Source: Candidatus Micrarchaeota archaeon
GTDB taxonomy: Archaea; Micrarchaeota; Micrarchaeia; Burarchaeales; JAKAKT01
Assembly: GCA_021813385.1 (NCBI GenBank)
Contig: JAKAKT010000009.1
Coordinates: 1 to 63,363, forward strand
Length of the DNA: 63,363 nucleotides
Reading direction: 5' to 3'
The notes under the pieces are model-generated. The model searched no databases. It had not been told where the DNA came from and saw nothing but the letters and a program-made list of their open reading frames with translations. The first letter of the stretch is position 1. The number at the start of each line of letters is the position of its first letter. Made by a program: the position numbers and the translations under genes. Below are positions 9,526-43,728 of this stretch, in pieces.

Positions 9526-9579
9526 CCCTAGGTTTCAAGCTCCTCCTGACCCCCTGACGACTTATCTTTGCTTGGTTCA

Positions 9580-9646
9580 ACCCCAGATTTTGCGCTGGGG
9601 CGCAAAAACCCTCACAAAGGTTCGTTCTGTTCGGTCGCCTGGGGCC
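9580..9646 (+). pseudogene. Decayed tRNA-Thr-like remnant (D-arm missing)
   Basis: Blocks collinear with tRNA-Thr 7299-7370: CCCCAG, TTTGC, GCAAAAA, GTTCG, TTCT, TCGCCTGGGGC. There is no D-arm, the anticodon loop is altered, and no valid cloverleaf can be drawn. Confidence 0.55.
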
Positions 9647-9746
9647 ATAAGCCAAGAGTCCTATTTCTCCAGACTTGCTTATTTTTAACGTATTCTGTAG
9701 TAAGCCTTAAAACCCTTAAGCATCGTTAATTTATCGGGGTCAGGGT

Positions 9747-9914
9747 ATGGAATTGAAGAGCATCAAAATTCCAAACTGGCTCGTTTTCATTCTTTGGTTA
9801 GTGGCTCTATATTTTTCCCGGGGCGCAATACAATGGGCGCTTTCGTTCTTTGGTTGGTATTTTGCTTATTGGTTTGTTTTCAAGAGGGATAAAAAAGGTA
9901 AGTGGTGGATATAA
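9747..9914 (+). CDS. Possible small membrane protein (55 aa)
   Basis: Below the track cutoff. Reads MELKSIKIPNWLVFILWLVALYFSRGAIQWALSFFGWYFAYWFVFKRDKKGKWWI, with two hydrophobic segments and a basic tail. A 10-bp hairpin at 9935-9962 and a T-run near 10003 follow it. Confidence 0.3.
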   Translation: MELKSIKIPNWLVFILWLVALYFSRGAIQWALSFFGWYFAYWFVFKRDKKGKWWI

Positions 9915-10053
9915 CGCTTAATCTCCGTTATGGGGAGTAAATAAGGTTCTCTTTATTTACTCGGTTCCCATACTCCAGCTTTACTCGGCGAATTCTAGCC
10001 CGCTTTTTTAGTATCCTTGTTTACTCCTAGTTTCTTGTCCCGGGGTTTCTGGC

Positions 10054-16730: not shown

Positions 16731-17312
16731 TCATGGGTAGATATTCTGGAGCGTAGTCGAATAAGATGACGGGGTAGTGCCCTCAATCACAGTAGTTGAC
16801 CCGAACTCCGGTATCAGCTCGAACCTGAATTGGGAACGGGTCGGGAAATAGACTGTTGTTGCCGGGATTATGTTTATTTGAACGAGGGAGGATCCGTCGA
16901 TTACTGGAGTCTGAGGATTGAAGAGGTTAGTCGGGTCGCGAATTTCGGTGATATTGAAGAAATTGCCGGCGGCCGCAGATGTGCGGTTATATGTTAGAGT
17001 GCTCTGGTTGAAATTATTGCCAACCCTAACAACGAGGGTGCTCAGGTCGGTCCTGCTTGCACCTGCTGCTGCCGTAACGAATATTGTAAAGTTCTCGATG
17101 TTGGTCATGCCGGAGTTGGTAGTGCCGATGATGCTGGACACAAGAAGATTGCCTGAGACCTGGGAAATCGCTTCTTTCCCGGTCTTCATCGCCTTTTGCT
17201 GGAGAATCCCAGAGACGTTTATGAGAACTGCTGCTGCAATGGCGGCGACGAGAACCATTGCGATGAATATGATAAGCGTTCCTATGCCAACCGCACCCTT
17301 CTTGTTTGTCAA
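16731..17312 (-). CDS. Archaellin/type IV pilin-like protein with class III signal peptide
   Basis: The conserved N-terminus KKGAVGIGTLIIFIAMVLVAAIAAAVLINVSGILQQKA must be near the protein start. An in-frame TTG at 17312 gives M-TNKKG|AVGIG, with a TATA (TTTTTTATACC) 30-40 nt upstream. The track ORF extension to 17588 is judged non-coding for this gene. Confidence 0.7.
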   Translation of the reverse strand: MTNKKGAVGIGTLIIFIAMVLVAAIAAAVLINVSGILQQKAMKTGKEAISQVSGNLLVSSIIGTTNSGMTNIENFTIFVTAAAGASRTDLSTLVVRVGNNFNQSTLTYNRTSAAAGNFFNITEIRDPTNLFNPQTPVIDGSSLVQINIIPATTVYFPTRSQFRFELIPEFGSTTVIEGTTPSSYSTTLQNIYP

Positions 17313-17341
17313 ATTGTCACCAGGAATAATGTATATGGCTA

Positions 17342-17371
17342 GGTATAAAAAAGATTCAGTAGTATATATAC
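17342..17371. promoter_or_regulatory. Probable bidirectional TATA region
   Basis: GGTATAAAAAAG and GTATATATAC lie between the pilin start (17312, minus) and the small plus-strand ORF start (17385). Confidence 0.35.
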
Positions 17372-17384
17372 GTTGGGATTTGTT

Positions 17385-17597
17385 ATGGGTGAGGCGATAA
17401 GTGCAATTGGCAAGCTCGTTATAAGCATAATCGCTGCCGCCATAATAGCCGGGAGCGTCTACAACTCGTTCAACCTTTTCGGGCTCAACCGTTACTTGAA
17501 TTTCCCTTACTCGGTGGAAATCTGCGCTGGTTCGCTTGGGCTGCTTGTTTTGGTTATCGTTTACGCGCTTATGATGAGGCTCAAGCACCAGCTATAG
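17385..17597 (+). CDS. Possible small two-TM membrane protein (70 aa)
   Basis: ATG at 17385 within track ORF 17373..17597. Two hydrophobic helices (AISAIGKLVISIIAAAIIAGSVY and AGSLGLLVLVIVYALMM). Competes with the antisense pilin ORF extension. Confidence 0.35.
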   Translation: MGEAISAIGKLVISIIAAAIIAGSVYNSFNLFGLNRYLNFPYSVEICAGSLGLLVLVIVYALMMRLKHQL

Positions 17598-23600: not shown

Positions 23601-26600
23601 TGCCGGTGTTGTTCACTGAATCGTTAACGTAGACTCGGTAAGCGTAAGAGCCGTTAGACAGCCCAGTCATGTTGCGGTACCAATTTGTCGAAGAGCCCTG
23701 GGTCATTGCGTAATAAGTGCCGTTCCAATCAACTATGGCTGAAACTGTCTCTTCATTTGTTGTGACATTCACATAAACCCAGGATTGGGAGAGGTTTGTG
23801 TTGTTTGCTGGGGTCAGGGGTACGAATGTGACGACTGGGGCAGTATTGTCGATTCTGATTGTGACATATTCGGTTGCATTCGTGTTTGAATAAAGGTCGG
23901 TTGCGTTGATAGTCACATTGTAGTAGCCATCAGACAGGGCAGTTGTAATGAATGTTGCGTTGAAGCTTGTTGCAGTTGTGTTGCTCATTTGGATCCAAGG
24001 AGTTACGTTTCCTGTTGTGTTTGAGAGCCAGTAGTAGACTTTGGAGGCGTCGGGATTAGCATCAGTAACCGTCGCGTTAATCAGAGTTGGGCCACTCACG
24101 TTCTGGTTCGCTGAAGGGGCGGTTATTGTGACGCTGGGGGGCAAATTATCGCCCGCATAAAGAGTCAGGTTAACTGTTGATGACGAGGTTATGTTCATTG
24201 AAGTTGAGTTTATTGCATAATTAGCCAGGCTTGCGTTTATCGTGTGATTAGTGTAGCTCACGTTAGTGCTGCCGTTCATCACCATTTCAGTCACGATGAC
24301 GTAATTAGTTAGGCCTCCCGGATTAGTCAAGTTGTCCGTCATATTTGAAAAGCCAAGGATGTCCGAAATGTTTACGATTGCGTTCTGGAGCGGGGAGCCG
24401 GCTGAGTTCGTGACATTTACGCGGGCGTACCATTGGATTGTGAGATTGTTGATGTCAGTTGTGCCTATAACGACATTCGAGATGTTGAATGTCATGTTCA
24501 GGAATATGTTGTCGTAAACACTCGGGAGGCCGAAATCAGGGCCAACCGCGTAAAAGTTAGTGGCCGAACCATTCGTGATTGTTGAGTTTGCGAAGATTGC
24601 CCGGGTAACTGCACCGAAGTTTGCATCGAGATAAACGGAAGTCGCAGCAGTCGTGATGGTGTTGTTAGTAAGAGCCGTGTCAGTAACAGAGCGTGCAAGA
24701 TACATGCCGAAAGCGCTGCCCCCAGTGGTGGTTATCGTGTTCGAATACACTGAAGTGTTGTACATGTTCCTGTAAACGTATGCGCCATAGCCGGATGAGC
24801 TTAGGATTGTGTTCAGGTAAGCGGAGTTGTTGCTGCCTGTAGTGGAAAAAGTTATGCCCGTTCCTCCTCCGGATGCGTTTATGTTGTTCGAATAGAGCGA
24901 GTTGTTGTAAATCACTGTCACGGCGAATATTCCGCCTCCTGATGAGTTTGCTGTAAGGTTGTTAGAGTAGACTGAAGAGGAATTTGTCCTTGTGAGATAG
25001 ATTGCTGACGCGGTGGTTCCATTTGTTACGACTTTATTCGAGTAGATGTTGTGGAAGCCGCCAATGCTCGCGTAAATCCCGTAGCTCGAGGAGCCATAGG
25101 TGTAGATTGTGTTGTTTTCAACTGTGTTGTTGTCGGCCCCGGTTTGTATCGCGATGGCATAGCTGCTGCTTGTGCTGACATTCCCCTCTGAGAAAATGCA
25201 GTTCTTTATGGTGACATTATCGTAGCCTGTATTGTTTACCCCATATCTTCCATTTACCGAGCCAGTGTCGTATGTGACAATGTGCCCGTTGCAGTCGAGG
25301 AATACATTGTGGGCGGTTATGTTGAAGCATGTTCCAGATGAAGTCACATCGCTGACGAGGGTGGTATTTGCACTTACTTGGCTGCAAATTGTTCCAGGCA
25401 TTTGGTATAGCGTGAGGTTGGTTGTAGAGGTCGAGGTAATGTTTGCTGACGTGGTGTTGATGAGATAGCCCGTAAGGGTCGCGTTAATTGTCTGATTGTT
25501 CAAAGCGAAGTTCCCGGAACTTGAATAGTTTGTGTCGTTCACCACAACGAACCCGGTCAACCCGTTCGAGTTCGTCAGGTTAACGACCATCGCAGGCATC
25601 CCGTTGATGTCCGATATGTTGACAAGCGCGTTCTGCAAAGCAGTACCTGACGAACTGGTAACATTCACGCGCATAAACCACTGGACGAGGAAATCATCTG
25701 TGCCTGCCCAGGAAACGTTCGAGTAGTTCGCAGTCGTGTTCAGGAAAATGTTGTTCACGGAATTAGTCATGGACCGGATAACGTCTGTTGTAACCGAGGA
25801 GTGATGGATTATTGAGTCCGTGAAGTTTGTGTTGTTCGAGTTCTGCATGTATATCCCATAGATTGCGCGGTCCGAGGTGATGTTGTAGAGCCTGTTTGAG
25901 CGAGAGTTCAGCGAATAAATTCCATAACTAGTGCTGTTGATGGAGATATTCTGGAGTAGGTTCCAGTTAGTACTCGAAAACCGCAACCCATAGGTCGCGT
26001 TCTGAATTTTACCATTCTGGAAAGTATTGTTTTCCGGCGGGGGGTCGAGATCTGATTGAAGAGCGTAAAGGGCAGAAGTCGTCCCATTGCCCCTTGTTAT
26101 ATTGAAGTTTGTGACGTTGGTGCCAGAGGAAAGGGATTCGAGGTATATGCCCGTGCCATTGTAGTCATCAACAGAAAGACCCGTTATATTCACCGGGCAG
26201 TTTATCCGGAAGCCTATGTTGCTCACGTTTACGTCAATATTCTGGAAAGACAAGTTTGCAGCGCATGGGTAGACCGTATGAATTCCATATCCGTTTGACA
26301 TGTTCTTTAAGCTCACCTTGGACACTGAAGAGTTTGAGACGTATGTGAAGTAGAGTCCGTAGCCGCGGTAGACATACGTGTCGCCCCCTTGCAGGTAAGC
26401 GCGCCGTCCCGAGCCAAGAAACACCGACGTCTCATCCAGGTAAGCGCCATAGTGGCGGATGTCTTGCTCCAGGGCATTGCTGGAAATCGCCCCGATGCTC
26501 TCGCCTATTGCTTCGGACAGCGTGTAGTGGCGTGACTCATGGTCGTTTCCTGCCGGGTTGACGATGGTGGTGACCAAGGTTCCTGAATGGTTCCTCCCGC

Positions 26601-29600
26601 TGTAGTTGCTTATCAAGAGGCTATCCACTGTATTCGCGTAGATGCCGTAGGCGAAGCCGCCTTTGTCTGCGAATTGCCCGGTTGGCACGGAAGTCACTAT
26701 GTTCCAGTCTGTGTGGTTCGTAATGTTGACGAGACTGCAGCTTATCAGGTTGATTCCGATTGCATTGCTATAGATGGAGCTGCTGCCGTACCCGCAGTCA
26801 TGAATCGTGTTGTTCAGGAAAGAGAGGTTCTGGGAGTTTTGTGCCCATATGCTATTGATGAACTGGGTGATTATGCAGTTCTTTATTGTGATGTTCGATC
26901 TCCCGGACATGTAAACGGCATAAGCGTTGAGGGACGTGGTACCAGTTATTGTGTGGCCGCTGCAGTCTAAGAAAATGTTGTCTGCGGCCATCGTGAAGCA
27001 GGTAGAGCCGGTCTGCGCAGTCACATCGCTGCTTAATGTGGTGTTGTGGTAAACGCTCTTGCAGTCAGTTGTTGGGATAGTCAGATTCACTTGCGTCATT
27101 CCGGTAATGTTGTAAACAGTGAGATTGGATGACCCGTCTGCCCATGAGGCGTAGAACGTGTGGTTGTTGTAATTGAATGACTGGACTGAGTTCTGGGTCT
27201 CTTCGGTAATGGAGTAATAGGCAGTCGGATTGGGGGTCGATGAACCGGAATAGATTGTGCGGCCGTTTGTTTCGTTGATTTGGAACGAGCCGCCAGCTCC
27301 CAACTGGTCTCCGAATTTATCTGTGAAATTGATCCGGACAGGCCAGGCGAAGCTCAGGTTCCCGGACAAAAGTAAAATATTGTTCCTGTTGAACGACGTG
27401 CAGTTGAAGATTATGTCATCGGTCGACACGTCGGTGTTCACTGCATCGTACGAAGTAGCGGATGCGAAGGAGGAAGTGTTGATTGTGTTCCAGTTCGAGG
27501 AAGATGCAAACTCGAGGTTGTCCACATTCCCGATAAAACTGTTGTTAAAGACATTATTTAGACTTGATGACTCGATTGTAAGCCCTGAGCCGCTCGAGTT
27601 GAGCGTGTTGTTCGAAAGAAGTGAGCTATTGGTTGAGTTAAAGTAAACGGAACGCTGGTAATCGCTTACAATGCAGTTCTTTATCGTTATGTTTTTCCTG
27701 CCCTCGGCGTATATCCCATAGCCCGCATCAGCGGAGTCGTTCCCGGTTATCCTATGGCCGGCGCAGTCAAGAGCTACGTTGTCGGCCGAGAAAGTGACAC
27801 AGGTTCCGTTCGAGGCGAGGTTTGACAGGAGTGTCGTGTTCACGCTTACCTGAAGGCATTCCGAAAGGTAAAGGCTGGCATTATATGTCTGCGATGATGT
27901 GACGTTCAGGCTTGATGAGTTGAATGCGCCTGCCTTTGAAACGTTGATTGTGTAATTGTTGAACGTGAAATTGTTGGTTGAGTTCATGTAAGTGATGTTG
28001 ATTAGGGTGAAGTTGGTAAGGCCGCTCGAATTTGTGACGCTCTGGACCATTATCTGTTTTCCATAAGCATCTGTGATATTCACTAGTGCGCCGCTGACCG
28101 GGCCTCCGAGATAGTAGGTTGCATTTACCCGCAGGTAATGCTGGAGGGTCAGGTTGTTTGTCCCGCTTCCCCAGGCGAATGTTGATGGCCCAGAGTAGCC
28201 ATATTGTGGTGGACCCCGGATTATGTTGTTCAGGGAAGTCTGGTTCGAAGTTATTTCCCTGACATAAGTACTCGCAAATGACGAGTTCTCGATAACATTC
28301 GAAGAGCTCGCGTTGAGATATATTGAATAGTTCTGGTAATCGAAAAACTCGTTGATGAACTGGTTCGAGTTCGAGGACTCGAGGATGACGTCGTAATTGT
28401 TATAAAAGAATGTCAGGTCAGAGAAGTTGTTTCCAGACGAGGAGTTCAGGTAGGCGCCGATTTGGTTAAGGTAAACTTGGCATCCACTGGTATTCAATGT
28501 GTTGTTGTGGGAATCCGAGAGGTAGGCCCCATAGAAGTTTCTCCAAGGGCAGCCGAACCCCCGGATGCTGCTCCTGTTCGTTCCTGAGAGCATTATGCCG
28601 GCGGAATAATTTATCGGGTAGCAGTCCTTTATGGTTATGTTCGTCCTCCCGGGCGCATAAATGGCGTAGGTGCCCAAAGTATGGTTCCCGACTATCCCCT
28701 TGCTTCCGCAGTCGAGCGTTATGTTGTCTGCCCCGAAAGTGAAGCAGGTGTCGTTGTAGTATATGTCCACTCCCGTGTAAAGGCTCTGCGTCAATACTCC
28801 GCAATCGTACTGGGTGAATGTGATTGTCTTGGTGCTCGTCACGTTGTTGGTTTTTGTCTGGAACTGGGAGAATGATACGTTTATCATGTGGTTGTTGAAC
28901 GAGAAGTTCTGCAGCACCGAGCCAGATTTGTTCATAATCATCTCGTTGGCTATGGCCCAGTTGGTGTAACCGTTCGAGCCCGTTAAGTTGTCAATCATCA
29001 ACTGCTTTCCGTAGGCATCCGAGATGTTAACTATTGCCCCTTGTATCGGGGAAACGTTGGTCGCATAAACGCGCAAGTACCACTGGACGGTCAGGTTGCA
29101 GGGCGAGCACGTCCCGAACCCGACCTTGCTTGTATTGAAAGTGGAATTGAGAATTGTGTTGTTCTGGGAGCTCCCGTCTAGATAGATGTCGCTAGTTGAA
29201 GTCTGGGAGATTGTTGAGTTCGACATGTTGTAATCGGTCGTGCTCGCGCCTGTGAGATAAACCCCGTAGCCGTTCCCATAGGCGAGCCCGGTGCTCCCGG
29301 GGTTGCCACGAGTCGAGTTCGTGAGAGTAGATGTCTTGATAACCCCGTACCTGCCCGCGGCGGTGACGACGTAGCTCGTTCCCCCAATCCCGGCAGTACT
29401 CGAACATGCCGTTGGATCTCCCCCGTTCCCAGCGGTGAAGTACGAGAGGGTCGCGTTCTCAATGGTTGCGTTTGCATTTGTTGCGCTTACATTGAATCCG
29501 AAGGAATCTCCCCCTGCCCCTCCTGTTCCGCTACCAATGTCACCGCAGTCCCCAGCAGTCCCTCCTGACCCACCAGTTACGTTGTTTATCGAACCGGTGA

Positions 29601-32600
29601 ATATGTTGTTCGCCGAGCGCAGATAGACTCCGCCCCCGGCTCCGCCGTTGCCTCCGTTGGCGTTGGTGTTGACCGAGGGAGTCGTCCCTCCGTTCCCCCC
29701 TGTTCCGCCAAAGACCTGGGAGATGCTCATCAGGAGCATCGAATTGTTCGCTGAGCCGCTGTCAGTTATGTAGATTGCGTAGGTTAATCCTCCGGCGCTC
29801 CCGTTCCCTCCGTATTTGAGTCCGGTCGCATTGCCGCCGTCCCCTCCGTTCCCGCCCGTCAGTCTTGTGAGCGTGTCGCTTGTGAATGTGGTGTTCAAGG
29901 AGTTGCTAATCAGATAAATCCCGTAAATACTCCCACCCACTCCGCCGTTGCAACCATTGCTGCTCGCTCCAGACCCGTTCCCGCCGGTCCCGCCTTTCCC
30001 GCCCGAAAGGTTTGAAATCGCATTGCTCGCAATCGAATTGTTTTTCGAGTTCGTGAGGCTGATTCCGTACAGCGAGTACCCGTCTCCCCCATTAGTGCAG
30101 GAAGCGCCATTGTTCCCACCGGTTCCAGCGACTCCGCTCGTGTTATAAATCGTGTTGCTGGTTATGAAACTGTTATTCGTGCCGGTGAAGAGGATGGCGG
30201 TCGTGTAGTTGCTTATGAGGCAGTTCTTTACTGTTATGTTATTCCTACCGCTCGCGAGAACCCCGTAGGCATTGGCCTGGGTGCCGGTTATCGTGTAGCC
30301 AGCGCAGTCCAAGGTGATGTTGTCCGCCCCGATTGTCATGCAGGTACTCGTAGTCGAAGCGATGCTGTTTGTGAGCGTCGTGTCTGAGTATATTGTAGCG
30401 CAACCGGAGTATAAGGAAAAGTTCAGCGTTAATGTGCCCGTGATATTGATATTTGTCGTATTGAAGAGAGACGAACTGCTCACGTTGATTGTGTGGTTGT
30501 TGAATGTGAAGTTTTGGCTCGGCCCCATATACATCTCAGTGACTGTTGCCCAGTTCGTGAGGCCATCGGAGCCGGTTAGGTTGTTCGCAATTACTTGCTT
30601 CCCATAGATATCTGAGATGTTCACGAGCGCGTTTTGGACGGGCGAGCCTGACGGGCCGGTAACGTTTACCCTCACATACCACTGGAGAGTTAGGTTGCTG
30701 GTCGCATCCAGGGTCACTTGTGATTTGTTGAAAGTCATGTTGAGGAATATGATGTTGTAGGCATTGTAAGAAACAAGGTTAAGCGCCGAGCCGTTTGTTA
30801 TCGTTGAGTTCTCGAAGCTGTTGTTGCGGATATACCCCGTGCTTCCATCGAAATACAGCGAAGCTGCCGCTGTTGTTATGGTGTTGTTCCAGAACCTGTT
30901 GTCGTATATGATCTGTTTCAGATGTATCCCATAAGCACTGCTTCCGGTTGTAGTTATGGAATTTGAATAAACCAAGCTGTTTGAAACTCCAATCCAGAGA
31001 TAAAGGCCGTCACTGCTTGAACTGTTTGTAGTGATGTTGTTGAAGGAAATCGCCGTGTTGTTGACTCCGCCGCTAGCTAAGTAAACACCAATGCTTGAAG
31101 TGCCGTTCGTGGAGATTCTGTTCGAGGTTATGTTATTGTTGGGTGAGGTCGAAGCAACATAAACGCCTTCGCTGCCTGATCCATAAGTGGTGATTGTGTT
31201 GTTTATCACGCTGTTATTGTTCGCATTGGTGAAGAAGACCCCGTGCTTGCTGCTTGTGCTTGTGTTTCCATCGATTAGGACGCAGTTTTGAACAGTCGTG
31301 CGGTTGTAGCCGGTATTGTTGACGCCGTACCTGGCATTGTTCGGGCCTGTCCCGTAGGTTATTGAAAATCCGTTGCAGTCAAGCGTGATATCATTCGCCA
31401 ATATCGTGAAGCAGGTATCGTTTGAGTTTACGTTGCTGTTCAATGTAGTGTTCGAGGTTAGGTTTCCGCAGATTGAGGGGGTTAGGGATACTTCGGCGTA
31501 TGAAGACACGTTGTAGGTCGAGTCCGAGCAGGTGAAGTTCGCGCCCCAGGTGTCATACCAGCTCAAGTTGCCCGATGAGATATTCGACGGATTCATGCTA
31601 ACATTCGAGCTGATTGTATTATTGCCCTGGAAATAGGGGGAAATTGTAAGATTATCGAACTCGTAGAAGAGCGCCTGCGCGTTGCTTGCGTCATCGAGAA
31701 GGAAGCCGATTGTGAACATGCTGTTCGCAATGTTTTGGTTCATGAACGATGCGTTCGTTGCGCTCCAGGCGTTCCAGGTGGTGGCGGGGATGTAGTTGGT
31801 CTTGTTGCTCAGGGAATTTGTCGTATTGCCGGCGCCACAGTTGGTGGTCTGGGAGAGGTTGTGGCAAGGAGTGACGTTGCCTGCCCAAATGTACGCAGTT
31901 ACATTGAGCGCCTGGGAGGTGTGATATCCTCTCCACCACCAGGAAATGTTGTAGGTCCCGGAGGAAAGCGGGAGTTTGAATGCCCGGTAAGCCCACAAGC
32001 TCCCTTGCCCGGTGTTGTCAGTGCGGGCGTGGAAATCCGGGGAAGGAACCCCGTCGCTTGAGTTCTGAGAGACAATCCATCCGCTTCCTGGGTCCGATGC
32101 GGTATACCTGTCCTCGGAGATCCCATACCAGCCATTCGTGCAGTTCGTGCAGAACGAGTTGCTCGGCGAGCAGGATGACCAGGAAGCGCATGTCCAGTTG
32201 CCATCAAACAGGTTTCGGAGGTTCCATAGGTAAGAAAGGTTCAGCGTCGGATTGTCCGGGTCGTTGCAGGTTACGTTCAGTTTGAGGGTGTCTGAAGTTA
32301 TTGGGGAAGTTGGGGTGATTCGCGTCTCTACGACTGTCGGAGTGAGGTTGAGGTTGTGGGTGATTTCCAGGTACGGGCCGTTCGCCAATCCGCACACATC
32401 GAAACCGCGTTCGTAGTCAGGGTCAAGGATGGATCCAATATCGAGGGAATTTTTATAAGCGGCACCGACTACTGGGTAGTAGTCTGGATGGTTTATCCTG
32501 ATTGTGAGGTTCTTCTCGCCTGCCCCGTATGCCGCCTTGGTGATGTTCGTGACGTTGATGCACATGTAGCCGCCTGGCGCGTCATAAAAACTGTAGGCAG

Positions 32601-34374
32601 TCGTAACGTTGTCATAAACCATTGCTTGATATTGTGAACCGGTTAATGACCAGGTAGTGGTCCAGCTTTGGTTCGTTATATGGGAGACGTTCGCCCTGTA
32701 GTCGAGAAGAGCAGGAAAGGTGTTGGGGTGAAGGCACAACGTGGAGTTCTGTATCGTTTCCCCGCTTGCAAGATTCGAAATGTCCCACTTGATTTGGATT
32801 TCTATAGGCCAGGACCCAGCATTTTGATAACCATACAGGTGAATTAGGCAGTAAGTATCCGTGAACTGCGTCGTCGGGTCTATTTCAATCGGGTAAACCG
32901 AGCGCATCAGCCATGAGAGCGGGACTGAAGTTGCGTAAAACGTCCTGCCGTTCCCCTGGAAAATCCCTGCCGGCATTGCCTTCGTGTCCGGGTATGGGAT
33001 TTCCCTCCCGTCAATAAGGGCTTTCGAGGAGTCCAAAGCGAGCGAAGGGAGGAAGGAATAGGCTTTCGAGCCGGACGAATCGAGGAAATCTATTTTTGAA
33101 AGAGTTTCCTCCCCGTTGGGAAGAGCAACCCCGTTTGCTGTGGGCGTTAAGCCATCGATGTCGACTTCAGACAAGAAATATATCGGGGTATCCTGGGGCA
33201 GGCCCAAGCCGGCAACAAGGGACCTGAACTCATCAGTTAATGTTATCGTTTCCTTGAACCTTCCGCTCTCGTAATCATATCTTATGTCGGTCCCTGTGAA
33301 TACTGTCGGGTATGTGACTGAGTTCTCATTCGGGATTCCAATTGAGGATGAAGAAATCTGTATATACGAGAGCCCGCCCCAGGAAGGGTCCTTGTATGCT
33401 ATTGCGAAAGGCTTCATCCCGAGCTTCTTGCCTCCCTTCTCTGCGAGCACAGGCCAAGCTGAACTGGCATCAGGTTTGAAATACGCTTTATAGGCTCCTT
33501 TCTCAACACCAGTCCGGTAGTCGCTGGAATAAAGCGGGTTGTCTTCGGGAAGTTCCACAATCGAGAGGTTGATTGGCGAGTATTCGGACCCGTTCCAATA
33601 GTCGGAAGAGGTCCCGTAGAAAGTATCTGTGTCGCTGTTGCCTTCGATTAATCTCCCATGGGCTTCTCCTACCGGAGTCACCTCTTTCTTCGCCCTTGCC
33701 GCATTTACTGTTTCTTTGGCAGGGCAAATGCTTGCATAGCGGCCCTTTACGCTCGTAACACCAAAAGGCGAGTAGAATGATGCATTCCAGGTCCCATTTG
33801 TGCAGGGAGTGACGTTATAGCGGAGGAGGAACGCCCTCTTTGCGCCCTCCTTGAAGGAGAAATGGGATTCGTCGACAGGAATCCATCTGTAGTAATCAAC
33901 TTCCTCTTCTGAGCCGTCCGCCTTCTTCTTCGCCTCATGACCGAAAAACGTCGATTGCCAGAGGGTTGCTTCCCGCGGGGCTTCAGAAAAACCAAGGGTA
34001 AAGTAAACCTTGAAGTCATTTATCTCGCCCGCAAGGTTCTCGAGGTTGAACTGGGATTCGCACTTCCCATCCTTGGAGCACAGGGCCAGTTTTTCATTGG
34101 AGGCAAAGAAACCGCTCTCCTTCTGCAGTTTCTTTGCTTCTGAGGTGTGGCTCGGGCTTATTTCCGGTCTCGCCTTCGGAAGCTCGGAGTATTTCGAGAT
34201 GTCGAGCTTGTGCCCTATGACCTGCGCATCTTTCAGGCTCGCCTTGAATTCAGCTGGAGCCCCCGCGTCAACCCCCACTTGGGCGGGGAGAGCGAGGAGT
34301 AATAGTAGGGAAAACGCTAAGCCTAACGGGAGAATTGCTATTATCCCACGTGAAACTGAATGCTTTTTTTGCAT
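17611..34374 (-). CDS. Giant (5,587 aa) modular, membrane-anchored surface protein, putative glycosylated adhesin
   Basis: Uninterrupted 16,764-nt ORF with an N-terminal signal-like hydrophobic segment. Six parallel-beta-helix-like modules are followed by about nine tandem Ig-like units, PKD/cadherin-like units, a Cys-rich region and about four further Ig-like domains. One C-terminal TM (about 17806-17860) precedes a K/E/R-rich tail. N-x-S/T sequons occur throughout. Confidence 0.9.
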   Translation of the reverse strand: MQKKHSVSRGIIAILPLGLAFSLLLLLALPAQVGVDAGAPAEFKASLKDAQVIGHKLDISKYSELPKARPEISPSHTSEAKKLQKESGFFASNEKLALCSKDGKCESQFNLENLAGEINDFKVYFTLGFSEAPREATLWQSTFFGHEAKKKADGSEEEVDYYRWIPVDESHFSFKEGAKRAFLLRYNVTPCTNGTWNASFYSPFGVTSVKGRYASICPAKETVNAARAKKEVTPVGEAHGRLIEGNSDTDTFYGTSSDYWNGSEYSPINLSIVELPEDNPLYSSDYRTGVEKGAYKAYFKPDASSAWPVLAEKGGKKLGMKPFAIAYKDPSWGGLSYIQISSSSIGIPNENSVTYPTVFTGTDIRYDYESGRFKETITLTDEFRSLVAGLGLPQDTPIYFLSEVDIDGLTPTANGVALPNGEETLSKIDFLDSSGSKAYSFLPSLALDSSKALIDGREIPYPDTKAMPAGIFQGNGRTFYATSVPLSWLMRSVYPIEIDPTTQFTDTYCLIHLYGYQNAGSWPIEIQIKWDISNLASGETIQNSTLCLHPNTFPALLDYRANVSHITNQSWTTTWSLTGSQYQAMVYDNVTTAYSFYDAPGGYMCINVTNITKAAYGAGEKNLTIRINHPDYYPVVGAAYKNSLDIGSILDPDYERGFDVCGLANGPYLEITHNLNLTPTVVETRITPTSPITSDTLKLNVTCNDPDNPTLNLSYLWNLRNLFDGNWTCASWSSCSPSNSFCTNCTNGWYGISEDRYTASDPGSGWIVSQNSSDGVPSPDFHARTDNTGQGSLWAYRAFKLPLSSGTYNISWWWRGYHTSQALNVTAYIWAGNVTPCHNLSQTTNCGAGNTTNSLSNKTNYIPATTWNAWSATNASFMNQNIANSMFTIGFLLDDASNAQALFYEFDNLTISPYFQGNNTISSNVSMNPSNISSGNLSWYDTWGANFTCSDSTYNVSSYAEVSLTPSICGNLTSNTTLNSNVNSNDTCFTILANDITLDCNGFSITYGTGPNNARYGVNNTGYNRTTVQNCVLIDGNTSTSSKHGVFFTNANNNSVINNTITTYGSGSEGVYVASTSPNNNITSNRISTNGTSSIGVYLASGGVNNTAISFNNITTNSSSSDGLYLWIGVSNSLVYSNSITTTGSSAYGIHLKQIIYDNRFWNNTITTAAASLYFDGSTGYIRNNSFENSTITNGSALNLVSYNAYNIIFLNMTFNKSQVTLDATSNLTLQWYVRVNVTGPSGSPVQNALVNISDIYGKQVIANNLTGSDGLTNWATVTEMYMGPSQNFTFNNHTINVSSSSLFNTTNINITGTLTLNFSLYSGCATIYSDTTLTNSIASTTSTCMTIGADNITLDCAGYTITGTQANAYGVLASGRNNITVKNCLISNYTTAILFTGTNNSFITSNTIYNTSGVAGTGGNNGASCTNGGDGYSLYGISLTNSKNNSIASNAISNLSGGKGGTGGNGSGASSNGCNGGVGGSIYGIYLISNSLNTTFTSDTLTRLTGGNGGDGGNATGLKYGGNGSAGGLTYAIYITDSGSANNSMLLMSISQVFGGTGGNGGTTPSVNTNANGGNGGAGGGVYLRSANNIFTGSINNVTGGSGGTAGDCGDIGSGTGGAGGDSFGFNVSATNANATIENATLSYFTAGNGGDPTACSSTAGIGGTSYVVTAAGRYGVIKTSTLTNSTRGNPGSTGLAYGNGYGVYLTGASTTDYNMSNSTISQTSTSDIYLDGSSQNNTILNSTFNTSKVGFGTCSPCNLTVQWYLRVYATNVSPIQGAIVNISDAYGKQLMIDNLTGSNGYTNWAIANEMIMNKSGSVLQNFSFNNHMINVSFSQFQTKTNNVTSTKTITFTQYDCGVLTQSLYTGVDIYYNDTCFTFGADNITLDCGSKGIVGNHTLGTYAIYAPGRTNITIKDCYPINYSAGIMLSGTNRSSIRGFGCPWRNFYGAYLSDSHNNTLNTSGCQVYLNQIGAYLNSSSGNNFSDLTFFYNNYDVILESSNSNQFINEFFDYQNYSIYLNASSSNVIENSSFASTYVREITSNQTSLNNIIRGPPQYGYSGPSTFAWGSGTNNLTLQHYLRVNATYYLGGPVSGALVNITDAYGKQIMVQSVTNSSGLTNFTLINITYMNSTNNFTFNNYTINVSKAGAFNSSSLNVTSSQTYNASLYLSECLQVSVNTTLLSNLASNGTCVTFSADNVALDCAGHRITGNDSADAGYGIYAEGRKNITIKNCIVSDYQRSVYFNSTNSSLLSNNTLNSSGSGLTIESSSLNNVFNNSFIGNVDNLEFASSSNWNTINTSSFASATSYDAVNTDVSTDDIIFNCTSFNRNNILLLSGNLSFAWPVRINFTDKFGDQLGAGGSFQINETNGRTIYSGSSTPNPTAYYSITEETQNSVQSFNYNNHTFYASWADGSSNLTVYNITGMTQVNLTIPTTDCKSVYHNTTLSSDVTAQTGSTCFTMAADNIFLDCSGHTITGTTSLNAYAVYMSGRSNITIKNCIITQFINSIWAQNSQNLSFLNNTIHDCGYGSSSIYSNAIGINLISCSLVNITNHTDWNIVTSVPTGQFADKGGFAYGIYANTVDSLLISNYSGRNHSGTLVTTIVNPAGNDHESRHYTLSEAIGESIGAISSNALEQDIRHYGAYLDETSVFLGSGRRAYLQGGDTYVYRGYGLYFTYVSNSSVSKVSLKNMSNGYGIHTVYPCAANLSFQNIDVNVSNIGFRINCPVNITGLSVDDYNGTGIYLESLSSGTNVTNFNITRGNGTTSALYALQSDLDPPPENNTFQNGKIQNATYGLRFSSTNWNLLQNISINSTSYGIYSLNSRSNRLYNITSDRAIYGIYMQNSNNTNFTDSIIHHSSVTTDVIRSMTNSVNNIFLNTTANYSNVSWAGTDDFLVQWFMRVNVTSSSGTALQNALVNISDINGMPAMVVNLTNSNGLTGFVVVNDTNYSSSGNFALNNQTINATLTGYLINTTSANITSTSTTNLTLYQMPGTICSQVSANTTLVSDVTSSGTCFNITAHNVFLDCNGHIVTYDTGSVNGRYGVNNTGYDNVTIKNCIFSEGNVSTSSSYAIAIQTGADNNTVENNTIYTYGSSSYGIYASIGGFHNIYSNKVVTNGTTASAIYLTRTNSSSVYSNNLTANSSGGGIFAVTVIYNNSLYSNNINASGGGTGITFSTTGSNNSAYLNTILSSSGYGAYVYRNMYNTSVYSNTITTTGGSAFGMYLARSVTDTALTNNTITTAATSVYLDANFGAVTRAIFANSTITNGSATNFYAVGPDFGLPSVYDNIFLNMTFNISNVVIGTTDINNLTIQWYARVNVTNSAGSPLQNAIVNISDILGFSNMTDNLTNPGGLTNYVIVTEMVMNGSTNVSYTNHTINASLANYAINSTSMNITSSSTVNLTLYAGDNLPPSVTITAPSANQNVSGPTLINATVTDANPDASKVYYWLSNTTGNVTPWIQMSNTTATSFNATFITTALSDGYYNVTINATDLYSNTNATEYVTIRIDNTAPVVTFVPLTPANNTNLSQSWVYVNVTTNEETVSAIVDWNGTYYAMTQGSSTNWYRNMTGLSNGSYAYRVYVNDSVNNTGSTGTMNVTIDTSAPAITFVTPTPPNDSNLSQNWAYINITSNEPIISAVINWNGTFYSLTQSSSTNWFRNMTVLGNGTYTYNVSANDTINNTGISETRNLTIDTVSPVITFVTPTPPNNSNLSQNWAYVNITTSEYAVSVLINWNGTWYQFSQLNPTSWYRNMTSLSEGTYDYYVQANDSANNTGTSSTQNLTIDTTQPALTLVSPTHNNESVNYAWSYVNLSSNENLANATLNWNGTDYPMGGSGINWYLNRTGLGDGNYSFFANASDFASNTNTTETRWVLIDTIGPIITFVSMTPGPDSTTSRDWVFVNVTTNERVDNASVYWNGTSYYLLNSSPTNWYFNITGLANGTYVYNVSANDTLGNNGTSLTQNVTVDTSAPMLTFVFPTNNDEFINYNWSYVNMTSDKALDNATLNWNGTDYSMQNTSSIEWYLNMSNLADGNYSFQARGNDSLNNLGYSETRWVLVDTVNPIPTFVYPTPSDNANLSTNWAYINVSANERIISALLDWNGTFYSMSQLNSTVWYRNMTSLGDGICSYTAHVNDSANNSGNIGPRTVRIDTITPTVSFVPPTPSNNSNQVSNSVFLNVSISEAAISCLVQNSSGFYAMSQLNSTVWYATMAPLSYSTNHSFTVYCNDTVNNTGSSGPLWVTVDIAPSVSNTQICANDTCSPVPISRGSSLNCSANVTDDFNSSIDVYFKWFVNGSYSSGYDSIRYAVPNATFAYAASPIPAAAVNKSDTWGCEARPYDGLQFGSALNSSTVTVNNTAPSIGAPSINNTSPINTSTISCDNGTFSDADGDQPGMGYWRWFWNGSVLGGQTSQSLSLLAIGAQATDQIICEHMSEDSGYDPKNSTRQNSTTVTLTTSSAPIPNNATLCKGTACLPIGSAIYLNDSLNCSANITDAENSTILQVNFTFYRNSTAYSVVSLDNVPNASISYPNSFPPGALRKSDTWICEVSAYDGEYSSNRINGSVAATVNNTAPWVTAPSINDTSPYTDSVLLCNNGSFSDADNDSEGSRVWGWFLNGTVIPGQISQTLDLSQAGAGNRGDTINCSQDSSDTGWDSKYSLENISTSVTIINTPPSTAVSISPSPAAQGSDVTCSALATDADGDSINFTYIWWNGVTQVATTFTNSTTFLLAGANTTNGETWTCQVTPFDGFANGTATNASVNIQAAPAGCPPNCPHPTPSLSASISGNCVNQTSTITISSDSGPVPGVSIKILRQGVLWQIVETGFTDAAGRYVFTPNETGQYEVQASLFGYNPTTARFTIGYCGTCGICDGTCPGPSCYGSDPDCDPLGLAIGGNACPGGGLCCGGSCKSVCTSQKDCSDGDTCTIDSCSGSNCSAICAHAPITSCLSKDGCCPAGCTSLNDSDCSPTCSPTCKGDVPGKSCQQYACVLGDCIESLKPDCCGNSICEPSAGESNTNCPTDCLLSCGNGFCDAQENKCNCPSDCGSCSGKCAGDCTQFKCTPDGCSCTTIPNCCGNGACEKPENFFTCSTDCPPEFLSLRIYSPSFGQDFLRGDRMHLAVKVFAEFVPAANAIVSASGFFGKVILYDDGMHGDGAPGDGLYGAYVDISSWVPYGPQAISFDARVGDSNGKRSSVILITNNLALNMVLDTPTLELGDTVFISGNVSGGSDDTEHEVLLDLSAYDSDISKQSKRTKGDFDFAYRTSFLDSAGNWIATITVIDDDNNTRMVSKLIAVEEPVPEKFLSVEYLSPVPGAYLKGQDVPITIKVTDAGNPITGAQAKAYGPKHKAFPLEEVGDGVYSSTYKISLDDPSGIWELQSRVYKTENGVLHGGAASTVVAITDVPIKLVITEPAKQDYSIGETLPINVLASYSEEKPADNIVLLVRLKDRSITARQVERGVYGSSLELDPGLQGANTMIIFARDPYENYGIAQVPLKVQGYSPWYYIKLYWIPIIAILLVALSVSAYYLQLVRKREKLRKLLEQKQEIVEKQRRVQSDYFVERSMDRGSFDQLSQKYDEELRKVEREMERLK
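21655..24150 (-). repeat. Tandem array of about nine ~92-95-aa Ig-like units inside the giant ORF
   Basis: Recurrent unit boundary (I/V)D(T/N)xxPxx(T/S)FVxPTPxNxSNLSQxW.Y(V/I)N(V/I)T...WNGT.Y...W(Y/F)(R/L)NM(T/S).L..G.Y.Y. Boundaries seen near 23850, 23570, 23290, 23010, 22740, 22460, 22190 and 21910. Coordinates are approximate. Confidence 0.7.
24150..31490 (-). repeat. Six large beta-helix modules (about 260-560 aa each) inside the giant ORF
   Basis: Each module opens with C-x-T-x-x-A-D/H-N-(I/V)-x-L-D-C-x-G-x-x-I-T and N-(I/V)-T-(I/V)-K-N-C. Each closes with NLT(L/V/I)QW(Y/F).RVN(V/A)T...(A)(L/I)VNI(S/T)D..G. Module starts lie near 31480, 30395, 28800, 27850, 27060 and 25385 (approximate). 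Confidence 0.65.
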
Positions 34375-40218: not shown

Positions 40219-40371
40219 TGGGCCCGCGGTGAATTGAACACCGAATCTCCACCTGTCAGAAACCCCGAACGGAAAAAACGCGTGAGGTTTTGTAAGGGTG
40301 GCGTCTTAACCGTTGTCGGCTTTGCCGACAAGTTTTCGACACTTGTGGCGAAAGCATTCGACTACGGGCCC
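40219..40371 (-). tRNA. tRNA-Val (anticodon UAC) with two introns (D-loop ~40313-40356; anticodon loop ~40255-40290)
   Basis: Exons assemble to GGGCCCG-TA-GTCG-AACGGTTA-AGAC-G-CCACC-CTTACAA-GGTGG-AGATT-CGGTG-TTCAATT-CACCG-CGGGCCC-A, 73 nt. The locus is 153 nt. Splice junctions are uncertain by 1-2 nt. Confidence 0.8.
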
Positions 40372-41860: not shown

Positions 41861-43219
41861 CTATTTCTTTGTGTGGATGAGCATCCCCTCAGGCCTCCTG
41901 AAGAGATTCCCGCTCCTGACACCAATCAGCATCGCCGTACCCTTGCTCTCGGCAAGGTCAACAAGCCTCTGGGTGATTATTCCATCGAAGACGACCGCGT
42001 GAATCCCGGGGGATTCCCCGAGCGTCTTGATGAGGTCCCGGACCGGAATCTCGTTCACCTGCTCGTTGTTTGGGCCGTAGAGCCTTGCCCTGAGGGTATT
42101 CTCGAGCTCGTCAAGGCTCTTCAGCAGCCCTTCAGGTGCCTGGGCAGCTGATGCAGAAGGGGAGGCTGTCTCAACGGGCGCGCTTGCCTGCTGGCCTTGT
42201 GCCTCAGAACGCTCGAACATCGGCTGTATCGATTCGGCTGGGGATTCCACAGGTTCCTTCCCCTCGCTAATGTCCTCTTCCCTCCTGGATTCAAAAGGCC
42301 TGCGCGTCCTCGCGAACCTCGACCTGTCTTCTTGCGCCTGCCTCGGCCTGTCGTCGGCGAGCTGCTCAAGCGGGAGCGCTGCCTGCCTTGGCTTCCCTCC
42401 GTTTATCTGCTCGAAAGGAACACGGCTTCTTATCGCCTTTATTATCTCCTTCCTTGAGAGTTCCTCCACTTCCCTTCCTGGAGGCGCCCTAGCTACGAAA
42501 TCGATTTCAGTCTGCTGGGAGAGCTCCTTGAGGATTATGTCCCCGCCCCTGTCCCCATCGAGGAAGACAGTCACTTCTTTCTCCCTGCATAGGCCGATGA
42601 CGGTCTTGGGAACATTCGCCCCTCCGATAGCAACCGCATTGTTTATGTCGTTCTTGAGCAGGTTTAGCACATCCGCCCTGCCTTCGACTATCACAATCGC
42701 ATCGGAAGTCCTTATGCCCGGACCAGCAGGCAGCTTCTCGGGGCCATAGCTCTCTATTTCAGCAATCTTGACCTCTTGCCTCACGAGTTCCGAAATCTCC
42801 TTGCTTTCAGGAATCTCGTTGGTGAGAAGAATCTTTAAGAGTCTCTTCGCCCTGTCGATGACTGCTTTCCTCTTCACGTTCCTCGTGTCCTCTATTTTCT
42901 CGACGTTTATCTTCGCGTCGCACGGCCCGACCCTGTCGACCGCCTCGAGCGCAGCTGCGAGAATGCTCGTCTCGACCATGTCGAGGCTCGAGGGAAGGAG
43001 AATCCTCCCCACGCTCTTGCCCCCCTTGCCCTGAAGCTCGACCTCGATTCTCCCGATTCTCCCGTTCTTCTGGAGCTCGCGCAAATCAAGCTCGTCCCCA
43101 AGAAGCCCTTCGGTCTGGCCGAATATCGCGCCAACAACGTCGGGCTTTTCTACGAGCCCGCCTATCTCTAGGTTCGCGTAAACCAAATATTTCACTGTGT
43201 CAATGTATGTCTTTCCCAT
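41861..43219 (-). CDS. dnaG: Archaeal DnaG primase (Toprim)
   Basis: The canonical archaeal DnaG N-terminus MGKTYIDTVKYLVYANLEIGGLVEKPDVVGAIFGQTEGLL starts at ATG 43219, preceded by GGTGA (43225-43229). Toprim motifs IVIVEGRADV and FLDGDRGGD. The ORF stays open upstream to 43600. Confidence 0.85.
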   Translation of the reverse strand: MGKTYIDTVKYLVYANLEIGGLVEKPDVVGAIFGQTEGLLGDELDLRELQKNGRIGRIEVELQGKGGKSVGRILLPSSLDMVETSILAAALEAVDRVGPCDAKINVEKIEDTRNVKRKAVIDRAKRLLKILLTNEIPESKEISELVRQEVKIAEIESYGPEKLPAGPGIRTSDAIVIVEGRADVLNLLKNDINNAVAIGGANVPKTVIGLCREKEVTVFLDGDRGGDIILKELSQQTEIDFVARAPPGREVEELSRKEIIKAIRSRVPFEQINGGKPRQAALPLEQLADDRPRQAQEDRSRFARTRRPFESRREEDISEGKEPVESPAESIQPMFERSEAQGQQASAPVETASPSASAAQAPEGLLKSLDELENTLRARLYGPNNEQVNEIPVRDLIKTLGESPGIHAVVFDGIITQRLVDLAESKGTAMLIGVRSGNLFRRPEGMLIHTKK

Positions 43220-43728
43220 AGTTTTCACCTTAATTGTTCGGTTTCCCTTATGTTCCCCGAATCTTTTGTCAAATTCCTGGAAATTCGAAAGGCCCAGGGC
43301 ATAACGAAACTTTCTCCTGCAATCGACGTTCGGGCGCACCCCGCATGCGCGGAGCGTTTCAGAGAGCCGTTCAAGCAGCTCCTCCCCCGCACAATCGAAA
43401 TCAGTGAGTATTATCGCCTCGTTCTCGCCAGCGAGCCTTTCGCAGGCTTCCCTTGGCCTTCCATTCACAGGAATTATCCTTTTTATCATTGTATTGGAAT
43501 TTGCTAATTCCAATGCGGACACAGTCATTTTCTCGGGAAAATGACGTCCATTTTTGCCTCGGGCAAAAATCGGAAATTTCCGTTGAAATTTGTCCTGCAC
43601 CTTTCCAAGGACTCCTTGTCCCTCTTTCCCTCAACTATAACCGGCTTTCCCGGCATCTCCTCGAGCGCCCGAAGAAGGGCTTTACGCCTCGCGACAAGCT
43701 TTCGTTCGCCTGCTGAACTCATCCTCAT
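43220..43728 (-). pseudogene. Small Toprim-domain gene split across two frames by a hairpin-dense segment; its 3' part reads into dnaG
   Basis: Frame A (43728..43525) encodes the Toprim Glu motif PVIVEGKRDKESLER. Frame B (from 43489) encodes IIPVNGRP...AIILTDFDCAGEEL (DxD motif). About 105-110 nt of stacked hairpins separate them. There is no stop before the dnaG ATG. Confidence 0.5.
43517..43574 (-). repeat. Double-hairpin element, copy B (inside the Toprim interruption)
   Basis: Minus-sense TCCGATTTTT, then hairpin ATTTTTGCC/CGA/GGCAAAAAT, then TGGAC. Hairpin GTCATTTTC/CCGA/GAAAATGAC follows, then TGT-GTCC. Collinear with copy A. Confidence 0.6.

Follow-up and report, generated by a model that had tools for sequence, protein, structure and literature searches.

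How does a transfer RNA (tRNA) intron come to carry the same irregular hairpin as a small element lying between protein-coding genes? The question is raised by a 63,363-nucleotide (nt) contig of an acid-mine-drainage Micrarchaeota archaeon (the window, by which we mean this whole stretch of DNA), in which the D-loop intron of a tRNA-Val(UAC) gene shares a hairpin with an intergenic double-hairpin element, copy A. A preliminary description, which also tied copy A to an insertion in a small Toprim-domain gene, had proposed that intron-like hairpin modules move between tRNA genes, intergenic DNA and a protein-coding gene. We find that the shared hairpin is the sequence-constant half of a family of small insertion units, and that the intron itself is older than the hairpin at its tip. 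The features from which the argument starts are these:

40219–40371, minus strand: tRNA-Val(UAC) gene carrying two introns; once spliced, it gives a 73-nt ARAGORN cloverleaf
40313–40356, minus strand: D-loop intron, 44 nt, between tRNA positions 15 and 16, placed by the fold and by a site common to three relatives
40254–40289, minus strand: second intron, 36 nt, at the canonical 37/38 site in the anticodon loop; its removal restores the cloverleaf
40325–40348, minus strand: single hairpin unit CC-ACAAGT-GTCGAAA-ACTTGT-C-GG at the tip of the D-loop intron, lineage-specific (pattern scan and fold)
40313–40331, minus strand: perfect 8-bp inverted repeat TTGTCGGC-AAA-GCCGACAA, hairpin 3′ arm against intron 3′ end (hairpin scan)
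9451–9560, plus strand: copy A, carrier element CTGAACCCAGGGGGCACA...TCCCCCTAGGTTTCAAGCTCCTCCTGACCCCCTGACGA, from alignment with copies in other metagenome-assembled genomes (MAGs)
9469–9522, plus strand: double-hairpin cassette of 54 nt, TCCG-HP1-GGA-HP2, lying within the carrier between two TCC
9473–9494, plus strand: HP1, the variable hairpin, which is the unit in reverse orientation
9498–9522, plus strand: HP2, the constant hairpin CCACAAGTG-CCAGAG-CACTTGTCGG, which is the unit in direct orientation

The tRNA-Val intron and its hairpin

On the minus strand the tRNA-Val gene reads GGGCCCGTAGTCGAA / TGCTTTCGCCACAAGTGTCGAAAACTTGTCGGCAAAGCCGACAA / CGGTTAAGACGCCACCCTTACAA / 36-nt intron / GGTGGAGATTCGGTGTTCAATTCACCGCGGGCCCA. 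Once 40313–40356 and 40254–40289 are taken out, ARAGORN returns a clean 73-nt tRNA-Val(tac) with a canonical cloverleaf; run on the unspliced window sequence, ARAGORN and Rfam both missed the gene. Orthologues adjoin the same AAA+ gene in three related loci, L088, L089 and L090. In the predicted fold of the precursor, the D-loop intron is held by a 4-bp splice helix of exon GUCG (40359–40362) with intron CGAC (40315–40318), flanked by the 3-nt bulges AAU (40356–40358) and AAC (40312–40314), with putative splice sites after the second base of each bulge, and followed by an inner helix of GCUUU (40351–40355) with AAAGC (40319–40323). This arrangement is a relaxed bulge-helix-bulge motif of the HBh′ form, the outer helix being absent. 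Above the inner helix stands the hairpin C-GCC-ACAAGU-GUCGAAA-ACUUGU-C-GGC. The repeat TTGTCGGC/GCCGACAA competes with the splice-competent fold, which is the minimum-energy structure and in which the splice motif is retained and the hairpin unit forms an apical extension. The last 10 nt of the intron (GCCGACAA and the bases preceding it) and the site are identical in the three relatives. The endonuclease of Ca. Micrarchaeum cuts relaxed motifs, bulge-helix-loop included (PMC3239211). The D-loop intron is presumably cut by this broad-specificity splicing endonuclease known from Micrarchaeota, and would then be spliced out. The two single-C bulges of the hairpin (1-3-1 spacing) were considered as a miniature splice site and rejected, their handedness being the mirror image of that of the splice motif.

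That this hairpin recurs in copy A, as the preliminary description had noticed, is borne out: the arms agree at 18 of 18 positions and in the bulged C. Exactly two matches to CCACAAGTG-N(4-12)-ACTTGTCGG exist in the window, at 9498–9522 (plus strand) and 40325–40348 (minus strand), a number reached in 0 of 100 dinucleotide shuffles; each 9-mer arm alone occurs at chance frequency. Both hairpins fold as claimed, with the C unpaired on the 3′ arm, and their loops differ (CCAGAGC in copy A, TCGAAA in the intron). Sharing of a 6-bp stem alone would be unremarkable, since about 1.5 such pairs are expected among 96 window hairpins. The full geometry (2 bp, a 1-nt 3′ bulge and 6 bp) is rare, with only 18 examples on both strands of the window, which makes a chance origin of the shared hairpin unlikely: these 18 hairpins give 153 pairs and about 6 × 10⁻⁴ identical pairs by chance, or about 9 × 10⁻³ when the CC/GG flanks are taken as present in the ancestral intron. 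The loop core TCGA of the intron hairpin (G-TCGA-AA) also matches the HP2 loop CTCGAG found in the source metagenome and in locus L036. An intrinsic terminator or generic palindrome was rejected on the grounds that there are two copies in 63 kb, that copy A lies between divergent genes and that the sequence is conserved across genomes. The preliminary description had allowed that the hairpin might prove to be a REP-like (repetitive extragenic palindromic) motif unrelated to introns; it is indeed REP-like, yet strongly tied to tRNA genes and their introns.

The history of the intron can be read from its relatives. Loci L088, L089 and L090, found around DnaG orthologues with 79–86% identity, all carry a tRNA-Val gene with a D-loop intron at the same site:

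Window: TGCTTTCGCC[ACAAGTGTCGAAAACTTGTC]GGCAAAGCCGACAA, 44 nt, with the hairpin unit
L090: AGCTCGCCGCCTTTGGCGAAGCCGACAA, 28 nt, no hairpin unit
L088: 27 nt, no hairpin unit
L089: 26 nt, no hairpin unit

These relatives already have, in their D-loop introns, the GCC/GGC pairs between which the hairpin stands in the window. In addition, a 980-nt contig from run X3 of the source mine-drainage study differs from the window gene by no more than four substitutions across the exons and the complete canonical intron, and its D-loop intron is 18 nt shorter, the missing bases being spread over 40324–40352 (the short intron, AGCTCGCCTTTTAGGAAAGCCGACAA, 26 nt, is a reconstruction from the alignment edit list). 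Since this contig is nearly identical yet lacks the 18 nt, a very close strain has the empty form. Taken with the three relatives, it suggests that the hairpin is a recent addition to the tip of an old intron. The D-loop intron is orthologous in these organisms, is older than the hairpin and did not itself move; the transposition of the tRNA-Val intron suggested earlier is not supported.

Intron content of this gene varies among close relatives (L088:12078-12215, L089:10256-10330 and L090:4950-5085, compared with window 40219–40371). The 36-nt anticodon-loop intron is identical in the X3 strain variant, has another sequence in L090 and is absent in L088 and L089; L088 has a T-arm intron of about 35 nt instead, and L089 has the D-loop intron only.

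A family of hairpin cassettes and their insertion sites

A scan of 185,579 species genomes for the exact-arm pattern gave 55 matches, of which seven, in Ca. Micrarchaeota MAGs, all have the double-hairpin architecture; the other 48 fit chance (about 150 expected for 18 fixed bases). One MAG, JBDRKD01, holds three copies, and one contig of CAYMOY01 holds two. A metagenome scan added seven loci, representing six distinct elements, one of them present in two assemblies. The recovered copies have a common architecture, (C)TCCG - HP1 - GGA - CCACAAGTG-loop-CACTTGTCGG - TC. HP1 varies in sequence and keeps its pairing, with double compensatory changes at six of nine stem positions and one mismatch among 12 copies. 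No difference is seen in the HP2 arms among the 14 loci from other assemblies (one of these an assembly duplicate), and two further HP2 copies, found by similarity in the source metagenome, differ in the loop only; a degenerate HP2 was found nowhere in 190 kb of Micrarchaeota loci. Every hairpin has the foot CC-A...T-C-GG, that is, the unit form CC-A[stem]T-C-GG, and in three copies both units of the cassette have ACAAGT stems. As HP1 is the unit reversed and HP2 the unit direct, the cassette can be understood as an inverted doublet of one unit, and the hairpin of the tRNA-Val intron as a singlet. No description of such hairpins was found in the portions of the literature that the search covered, and the family appears to be previously undescribed and seen so far almost only in Micrarchaeota.

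The cassettes are nested in carriers of about 65 nt, at least five of which are present at similar depth in the source metagenome (three filled, two empty). For copy A, an empty carrier (...GGGGGCACA|TCCCCCTAGG...) lies on a similar-depth contig of the same run, and another (...CCGAACCCAGGGGGCACA|TCCCCCTAGGTTTCA...) fixes the borders of the cassette, each of them adjoined by TCC. Cassettes also occupy a second site, between TTTCAGGG and TCCTCCTGACC, in L052, L036 and L071, and this site is vacant in the window, L039 and L023; another carrier subfamily is empty in L075 and filled in L027, L030 and L063. Inverted termini of 9 nt (CCGACAAGT...ACTTGTCGG) occur in one carrier subfamily only, and the duplication signal for the cassette is limited to an ambiguous TCC/TCC. 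The earlier proposal that the hairpin modules are insertion units thus agrees with filled and empty sites in relatives and sister strains, the empty sites sought in related strains having been found at the intron, the carriers and the Toprim gene alike.

Many of the insertions lie in or beside tRNA genes. The double hairpin also occurs inside tRNA introns of other Micrarchaeota: carrier and cassette lie within an intron of about 184 nt in the anticodon loop of tRNA-Thr(CGT) in L023, and within a 136-nt T-loop intron of tRNA-Gly(CCC) in L030, and the spliced reconstructions of both fold as clean tRNAs in ARAGORN. The same intron sequence at different positions of different tRNA genes is thus a feature of other genomes; the window intron holds the singlet only. 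Elsewhere, the element lies directly upstream of a tRNA gene (L027, L039), 2–3 nt past a tRNA 3′ end (L063, L075, L089) or abutting a tRNA on the opposite strand (L074), and eight of the nine tRNA-linked copies have the orientation of the tRNA. About half of the copies have no detected neighbouring tRNA gene; a deletion scan with ARAGORN gave none beside the element in window copy A, L011, L052 or L036. In some Micrarchaeota hairpin modules may be far more numerous: beside the element in L074:1090-1281 and L076:1161-1300 there are many more perfect hairpin pairs, such as GCATTTTGC-TTCA-GCAAAATGC followed by CATCGCCC-TCTA-GGGCGATG, in what appear to be heavily interrupted tRNA genes.

Direct repeats flank the element at six loci (12, 14, 16, 16, 25 and 24+18 nt). 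The clearest comparison is at the 3′ end of tRNA-Val itself: the window, L088 and L090 have only a plain T-rich trailer there, and L089 has an empty carrier. There (L089:10356-10450), the carrier begins 2 nt past the tRNA 3′ end and is accompanied by a perfect 25-nt duplication, GTTCGATTCACCGCGGGCCCATTCC; this repeat of the end of the gene region reads as a target duplication made at the DNA level. Because target duplications of 12–25 nt accompany the element and about half of the copies have no detected tRNA neighbour, the evidence points to insertion of DNA in the manner of REP sequences or miniature inverted-repeat transposable elements (MITEs) and not to intron movement.

The third locus named in the preliminary description comprises the following features:

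43489–43595, minus strand: 107-nt insertion with four hairpins in the small Toprim gene, from alignment with intact homologues
about 43520–43574, minus strand: central cassette of this insertion, TCCG-HP1-GGAC-HP2′-TGTG
43220–43728, minus strand: small Toprim-domain gene, interrupted and frame-shifted
41861–43219, minus strand: dnaG

The 579-codon open reading frame (ORF) at 41861–43600 is DnaG preceded by the small Toprim gene, and joining ...GAAAGGTGC|ATGATAAAA... restores the full Toprim-domain match. L088 and L089 have an intact small Toprim gene (132–133 aa), and L090 a decayed pseudogene. Among DNA contigs, one sister strain lacks precisely the 107 nt, the site is likewise empty in a more divergent strain, and a third allele, at low depth, has the outer two hairpins and not the central cassette. 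The link of copy A with this insertion holds: TCCGATTTTT and AAAAATGGAC stand in the same order in both and enclose a first hairpin in which the inner 3 bp show compensatory differences. The HP1 of the Toprim cassette is, in addition, identical at 21 of 21 positions to a cassette HP1 in L036 (MAG JAPLWU01). The Toprim junctions, TGC|AGG...ACA|ATG, contain no 3-4-3 or recognisable relaxed splice motif. Its gene having no stop and being a pseudogene in the closest relative, the insertion need not be spliced, and the simplest reading would be a selfish insertion into a dispensable gene. Of the three-locus link as first drawn, the single family of movable hairpin modules stands; intron transposition as the link does not, given cassette and Toprim borders without a splice motif and carriers that make target duplications.

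Three observations may be added on this locus. Where L089 has a TAG stop codon for Toprim, and L088 a TGA in another frame, the window (43205–43235, minus strand) and L090 read AAG, and with the loss of the stop the ORF runs in frame into dnaG. The public gene call P0001 is a 555-aa Toprim-dnaG fusion. The fourth hairpin of the insertion, ATTGGAATT-AGCA-AATTCCAAT (43493–43514), recurs with two differences on another contig of similar depth, beside another palindrome.

Copy A lies between divergent genes, outside any tRNA gene, and a hairpin scan of the window gave only two double-hairpin loci. Several other identities were considered for copy A. A hidden multi-intron tRNA was suggested by TAGGG-CUCUGAA-CCCUA, which resembles a tRNA-Gln anticodon arm, but CCGAA-CCC belongs to the element in every copy; brute-force deletion of every interval around HP2, followed by ARAGORN, gave no tRNA at copy A. 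Rfam 15 gave no match at E ≤ 10 in 9300–10100 and, window-wide, none at E ≤ 5 except tRNA-Thr. A peptide encoded on the opposite strand (a Shine–Dalgarno-like GGAGG followed by an ORF) was rejected, since loop lengths differ between copies and break its frame. A C/D-box or H/ACA small RNA was likewise rejected: CUGA is present in the tail, but inspection revealed neither a C box nor a kink turn. As for a bulge-helix-bulge motif, the one candidate was a strained 4-bp pairing, GGCA/UGUC, that competes with HP2 itself, and no 4-bp helix flanked by bulges can be drawn at the cassette borders CACA|TCCG...CGG|TCC. A solo hairpin, TTTTGCGC-TGGG-GCGCAAAA, is found 65 nt downstream of copy A (window 9588–9607).

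The genes of the window are ordinary chromosomal ones, and the only mobile-element gene among them is a TnpB. It belongs to a TnpB-only element of the IS605 family (4266–5384, plus strand; OrfB_IS605 with a Cas12f-like TNB domain), whose 3′ hairpin is CCACCCGA-TTTA-TCGGGTGG and which has no ends like HP1 or HP2. IS605 ends were rejected as the source of the hairpins, those of the TnpB element being unrelated. The HP2 stem 7-mer ACAAGTG occurs upstream of this TnpB (4198–4204), in an irregular inverted repeat CCA-A-CTT...AAG-TGG, probably by chance (about 0.02). A viral origin of the family was rejected as well, for in IMG/VR the HP2 pattern gave noise only and there were no empty carriers. A 15-mer of the carrier, CCCCTAGGTTTCAGG, preceded by TTGTTTCCGA, does occur in the invariant core of a hairpin element of about 100 nt on 11 IMG/VR viral contigs (L095-L101 and L103-L106; e.g., L097:6570-6690). 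That element has a covarying closing stem, lies between co-directional genes and has no Rfam match, and its base-pairing partners differ from those in the Micrarchaeota carrier. Away from these loci, positions 17611–34374 (minus strand) form a single 5587-codon ORF with many diverged internal repeats (periods of about 276 and 800–1600 nt), probably a giant surface protein, adjoined by an archaellin-like gene at 16731–17588.

Origin of the intron hairpin

We favour, as probable though well short of certain, the explanation in which the hairpin of the intron derives from the family unit, arrived by an event at the DNA level and is now a passenger; this explanation and the three rival readings discussed below are not fully exclusive. 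The family would be non-coding, selfish, hairpin-forming DNA that inserts at the DNA level, with cassettes as discrete insertion units nested in the carriers of about 65 nt. Its preferred targets would lie in or beside tRNA genes (leaders, trailers and introns) and occasionally in a dispensable protein gene such as the small Toprim gene. We propose that the element does no harm in a precursor tRNA, since it would be removed by RNase P, RNase Z and the splicing endonuclease. In the window strain, the apical loop of the intron inner helix would have been replaced by one CC-ACAAGT...ACTTGT-C-GG unit, the sequence-constant half of the 54-nt cassette, whose two hairpins are inverted as in a REPIN doublet. 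From this we infer DNA-level mobility of the single unit as well, along with a donor and a mobilising enzyme. The hairpin would be a passenger in the tRNA-Val intron, and splicing would rely on the unchanged GUCG/CGAC helix and its two 3-nt bulges.

Several points weigh against this explanation. The CC/GG flanks are already ancestral in the D-loop intron, which leaves no more than about 14 nt as certainly new. Compared with the relatives, the helix of the intron has changed in its 5′ arm as well (A>T, +TT), so that the event was no clean insertion. Complementarity over 8 bp between the new 3′ arm and the intron 3′ end leaves room for a local origin. The hairpin loop differs by three changes from the nearest family copy, and neither the two collections (genomes and metagenomes) nor the source runs yielded a donor whose loop is exactly TCGAAA. 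The invariance of HP2 is partly circular, as the external copies were found by the exact-arm pattern. Moreover, the target duplications vary in length (12–25+ nt), unlike those of any standard transposase; no transposase, recombinase or reverse transcriptase linked to the family was found in the window; and the tRNA-Val locus has zero coverage in the three metatranscriptomes of the source study.

Some of these points would be better accommodated if the hairpin had arisen in place, for example by template switching that copied the intron 3′ end GCCGACAA in inverted form, its match with HP2 being accidental. The perfect 8-bp inverted repeat inside the intron, the ancestral flanks, the unexceptional sharing of a 6-bp stem (about 1.5 pairs among 96 hairpins) and the missing same-loop donor all agree with such coincidence or local origin. 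An inverted copy accounts, however, for TTGTC and not for the 5′ arm ACAAGTG, and it leaves the position and identity of the bulged C and the TCGA loop core unexplained; the chance expectation conditioned on geometry is 6 × 10⁻⁴ to 9 × 10⁻³, and the bases that match are exactly those that stay constant in a family whose activity in this population is demonstrable and which resides in tRNA introns elsewhere. We therefore regard this origin as improbable, slightly more so than movement at the RNA level, which we also consider distinctly unlikely. In the latter case, the modules would be, or derive from, bulge-helix-bulge introns, and one splicing-linked process would serve all three loci: excised pieces would be re-ligated by RtcB into endonuclease-cut RNAs (at hairpin loops and bulges), then reverse transcribed and recombined into DNA. 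Such a route would suit modules that sit in tRNA introns of three genomes, mostly in the orientation of the tRNA, and that have entered the loops of hairpins already in place (the tip of the intron and the carrier loop GGGGG-CACA^TCC-CCCCC), as well as an endonuclease able to cut relaxed motifs such as bulge-helix-loop (PMC3239211); and the mechanism of archaeal intron transposition is acknowledged as unknown (PMC4090602). It is hard to reconcile with cassette borders and Toprim junctions that have no splice motif, with long target duplications around the carriers, which are not a product of reverse splicing, and with the half of the copies that have no detected tRNA neighbour. Nor is there a reverse transcriptase in the window, and the Toprim insertion, in a stop-less gene that is a pseudogene in the closest relative, need not be spliced at all.

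The least probable of the readings, in our view, is that HP2 is a candidate site for a host protein, on RNA or DNA, kept by selection in the precursor tRNA for processing, stability or transcription. HP2 arms that stay unchanged across MAGs with diverged HP1, loops and carriers could be explained in this way, as could the agreement in orientation with tRNA genes, and in duplex form the 9-6-9/10 inverted repeat has the geometry of a dimer site or recombinase core site. A site for the mobilising enzyme of the element itself would look alike, though, and the invariance is inflated by exact-arm retrieval. The hairpin is, moreover, present or absent among near-identical strains and among carriers of one metagenome; copies occur without a nearby tRNA gene, one of them in a coding gene; and other cassettes hold a different second hairpin.

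If acquisition at the DNA level is accepted, a broader conjecture can be raised, namely that carriers and cassettes are agents of archaeal tRNA intron gain, landing in tRNA genes, persisting there thanks to excision by a broad-specificity endonuclease, and seeding new introns. A carrier within a tRNA gene must be spliced out (L023, L030), which makes the family a plausible source of new intron sequence; we nonetheless hold the conjecture to be rather unlikely as it stands. If it were true, the 136-nt tRNA-Gly and 184-nt tRNA-Thr introns would be examples, old introns such as that of tRNA-Val would have kept being remodelled, and the frame-shifting Toprim insertion would be either a landing that failed or an mRNA intron in the making. 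Reviews describe the way in which archaeal introns are gained or moved as unknown, and presume only that it operates on DNA (PMC4090602). The tRNA-Val locus and its relatives present one repeat family both as intron content and as free-standing insertions, with target duplications and empty sites, and may offer a concrete lead on how archaeal tRNA introns gain sequence; with three alleles segregating in one natural population, the question of intron gain becomes testable. On the practical side, standard tRNA finders miss such genes, and gene callers fuse or drop genes that the element interrupts.

Likeness to known systems

Non-canonical bulge-helix-bulge tRNA introns (PMC3239211, PMC4090602) resemble the present case in their multi-intron tRNA genes, in relaxed motifs at D-loop and T-loop sites, in related sequences within introns of different tRNAs (here tRNA-Val, and tRNA-Thr and tRNA-Gly elsewhere) and in intron content that turns over between close relatives. 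Unlike those introns, the piece shared here is a hairpin unit or cassette, found outside introns too, and not a whole intron with its splice motif, and the tRNA-Val intron kept its position. Insertion at the DNA level is directly evidenced here by target duplications and empty sites, which were not available to the Thermoproteales work. Integrative elements that target tRNA genes, and casposons, share insertion at tRNA 3′ ends and a duplicated tRNA segment (25 nt in L089, about 43–65 nt in L075), and the model of Sugahara et al. 2012, in which an insertion inside a tRNA gene ends as an intron, is also similar (PMC3293823). In contrast to those elements, ours are 65–130 nt long and encode nothing. 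The duplicated sequence is different at every site, and it therefore comes from the target and not from an att core borne by the element.

Bacterial REP sequences and REPINs are singlet imperfect palindromes and inverted doublets of these, respectively, mobilised by RAYT Y1 transposases. They are close to the family in having a 20–25-nt imperfect palindrome with a conserved foot and an unpaired base, a singlet form (the intron) and an inverted doublet (the cassette), several non-coding copies per genome, and stems conserved in sequence with variable loops. The present family differs in being archaeal, with about five carriers per genome as against hundreds, in being nested in a second type of element, in its strong association with tRNA genes and in that no RAYT or TnpA was found for it in the window. 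MITEs and palindromic elements (Rickettsia palindromic elements, Correia elements) are likewise small, structured and non-autonomous, polymorphic for presence and absence, and inserted inside RNA and protein genes, and the 9-nt terminal inverted repeats of one carrier subfamily fit this pattern. The target duplications of MITEs are short and fixed, whereas those of the carriers are long and variable (12–25+ nt); and the Toprim insertion, in contrast to gene-invading palindromic elements, is out of frame, and the window has no autonomous partner. Palindrome-associated transposable elements (PATEs) derived from IS200/IS605 differ in that their hairpins are subterminal, while the hairpin feet of the cassette stand at its very ends; the end hairpins of the resident TnpB element are also unrelated, and TnpA was not seen. 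Like these PATEs, however, the cassette has end hairpins with an extrahelical base, no clear target duplication and a conserved TCC at the point of insertion.

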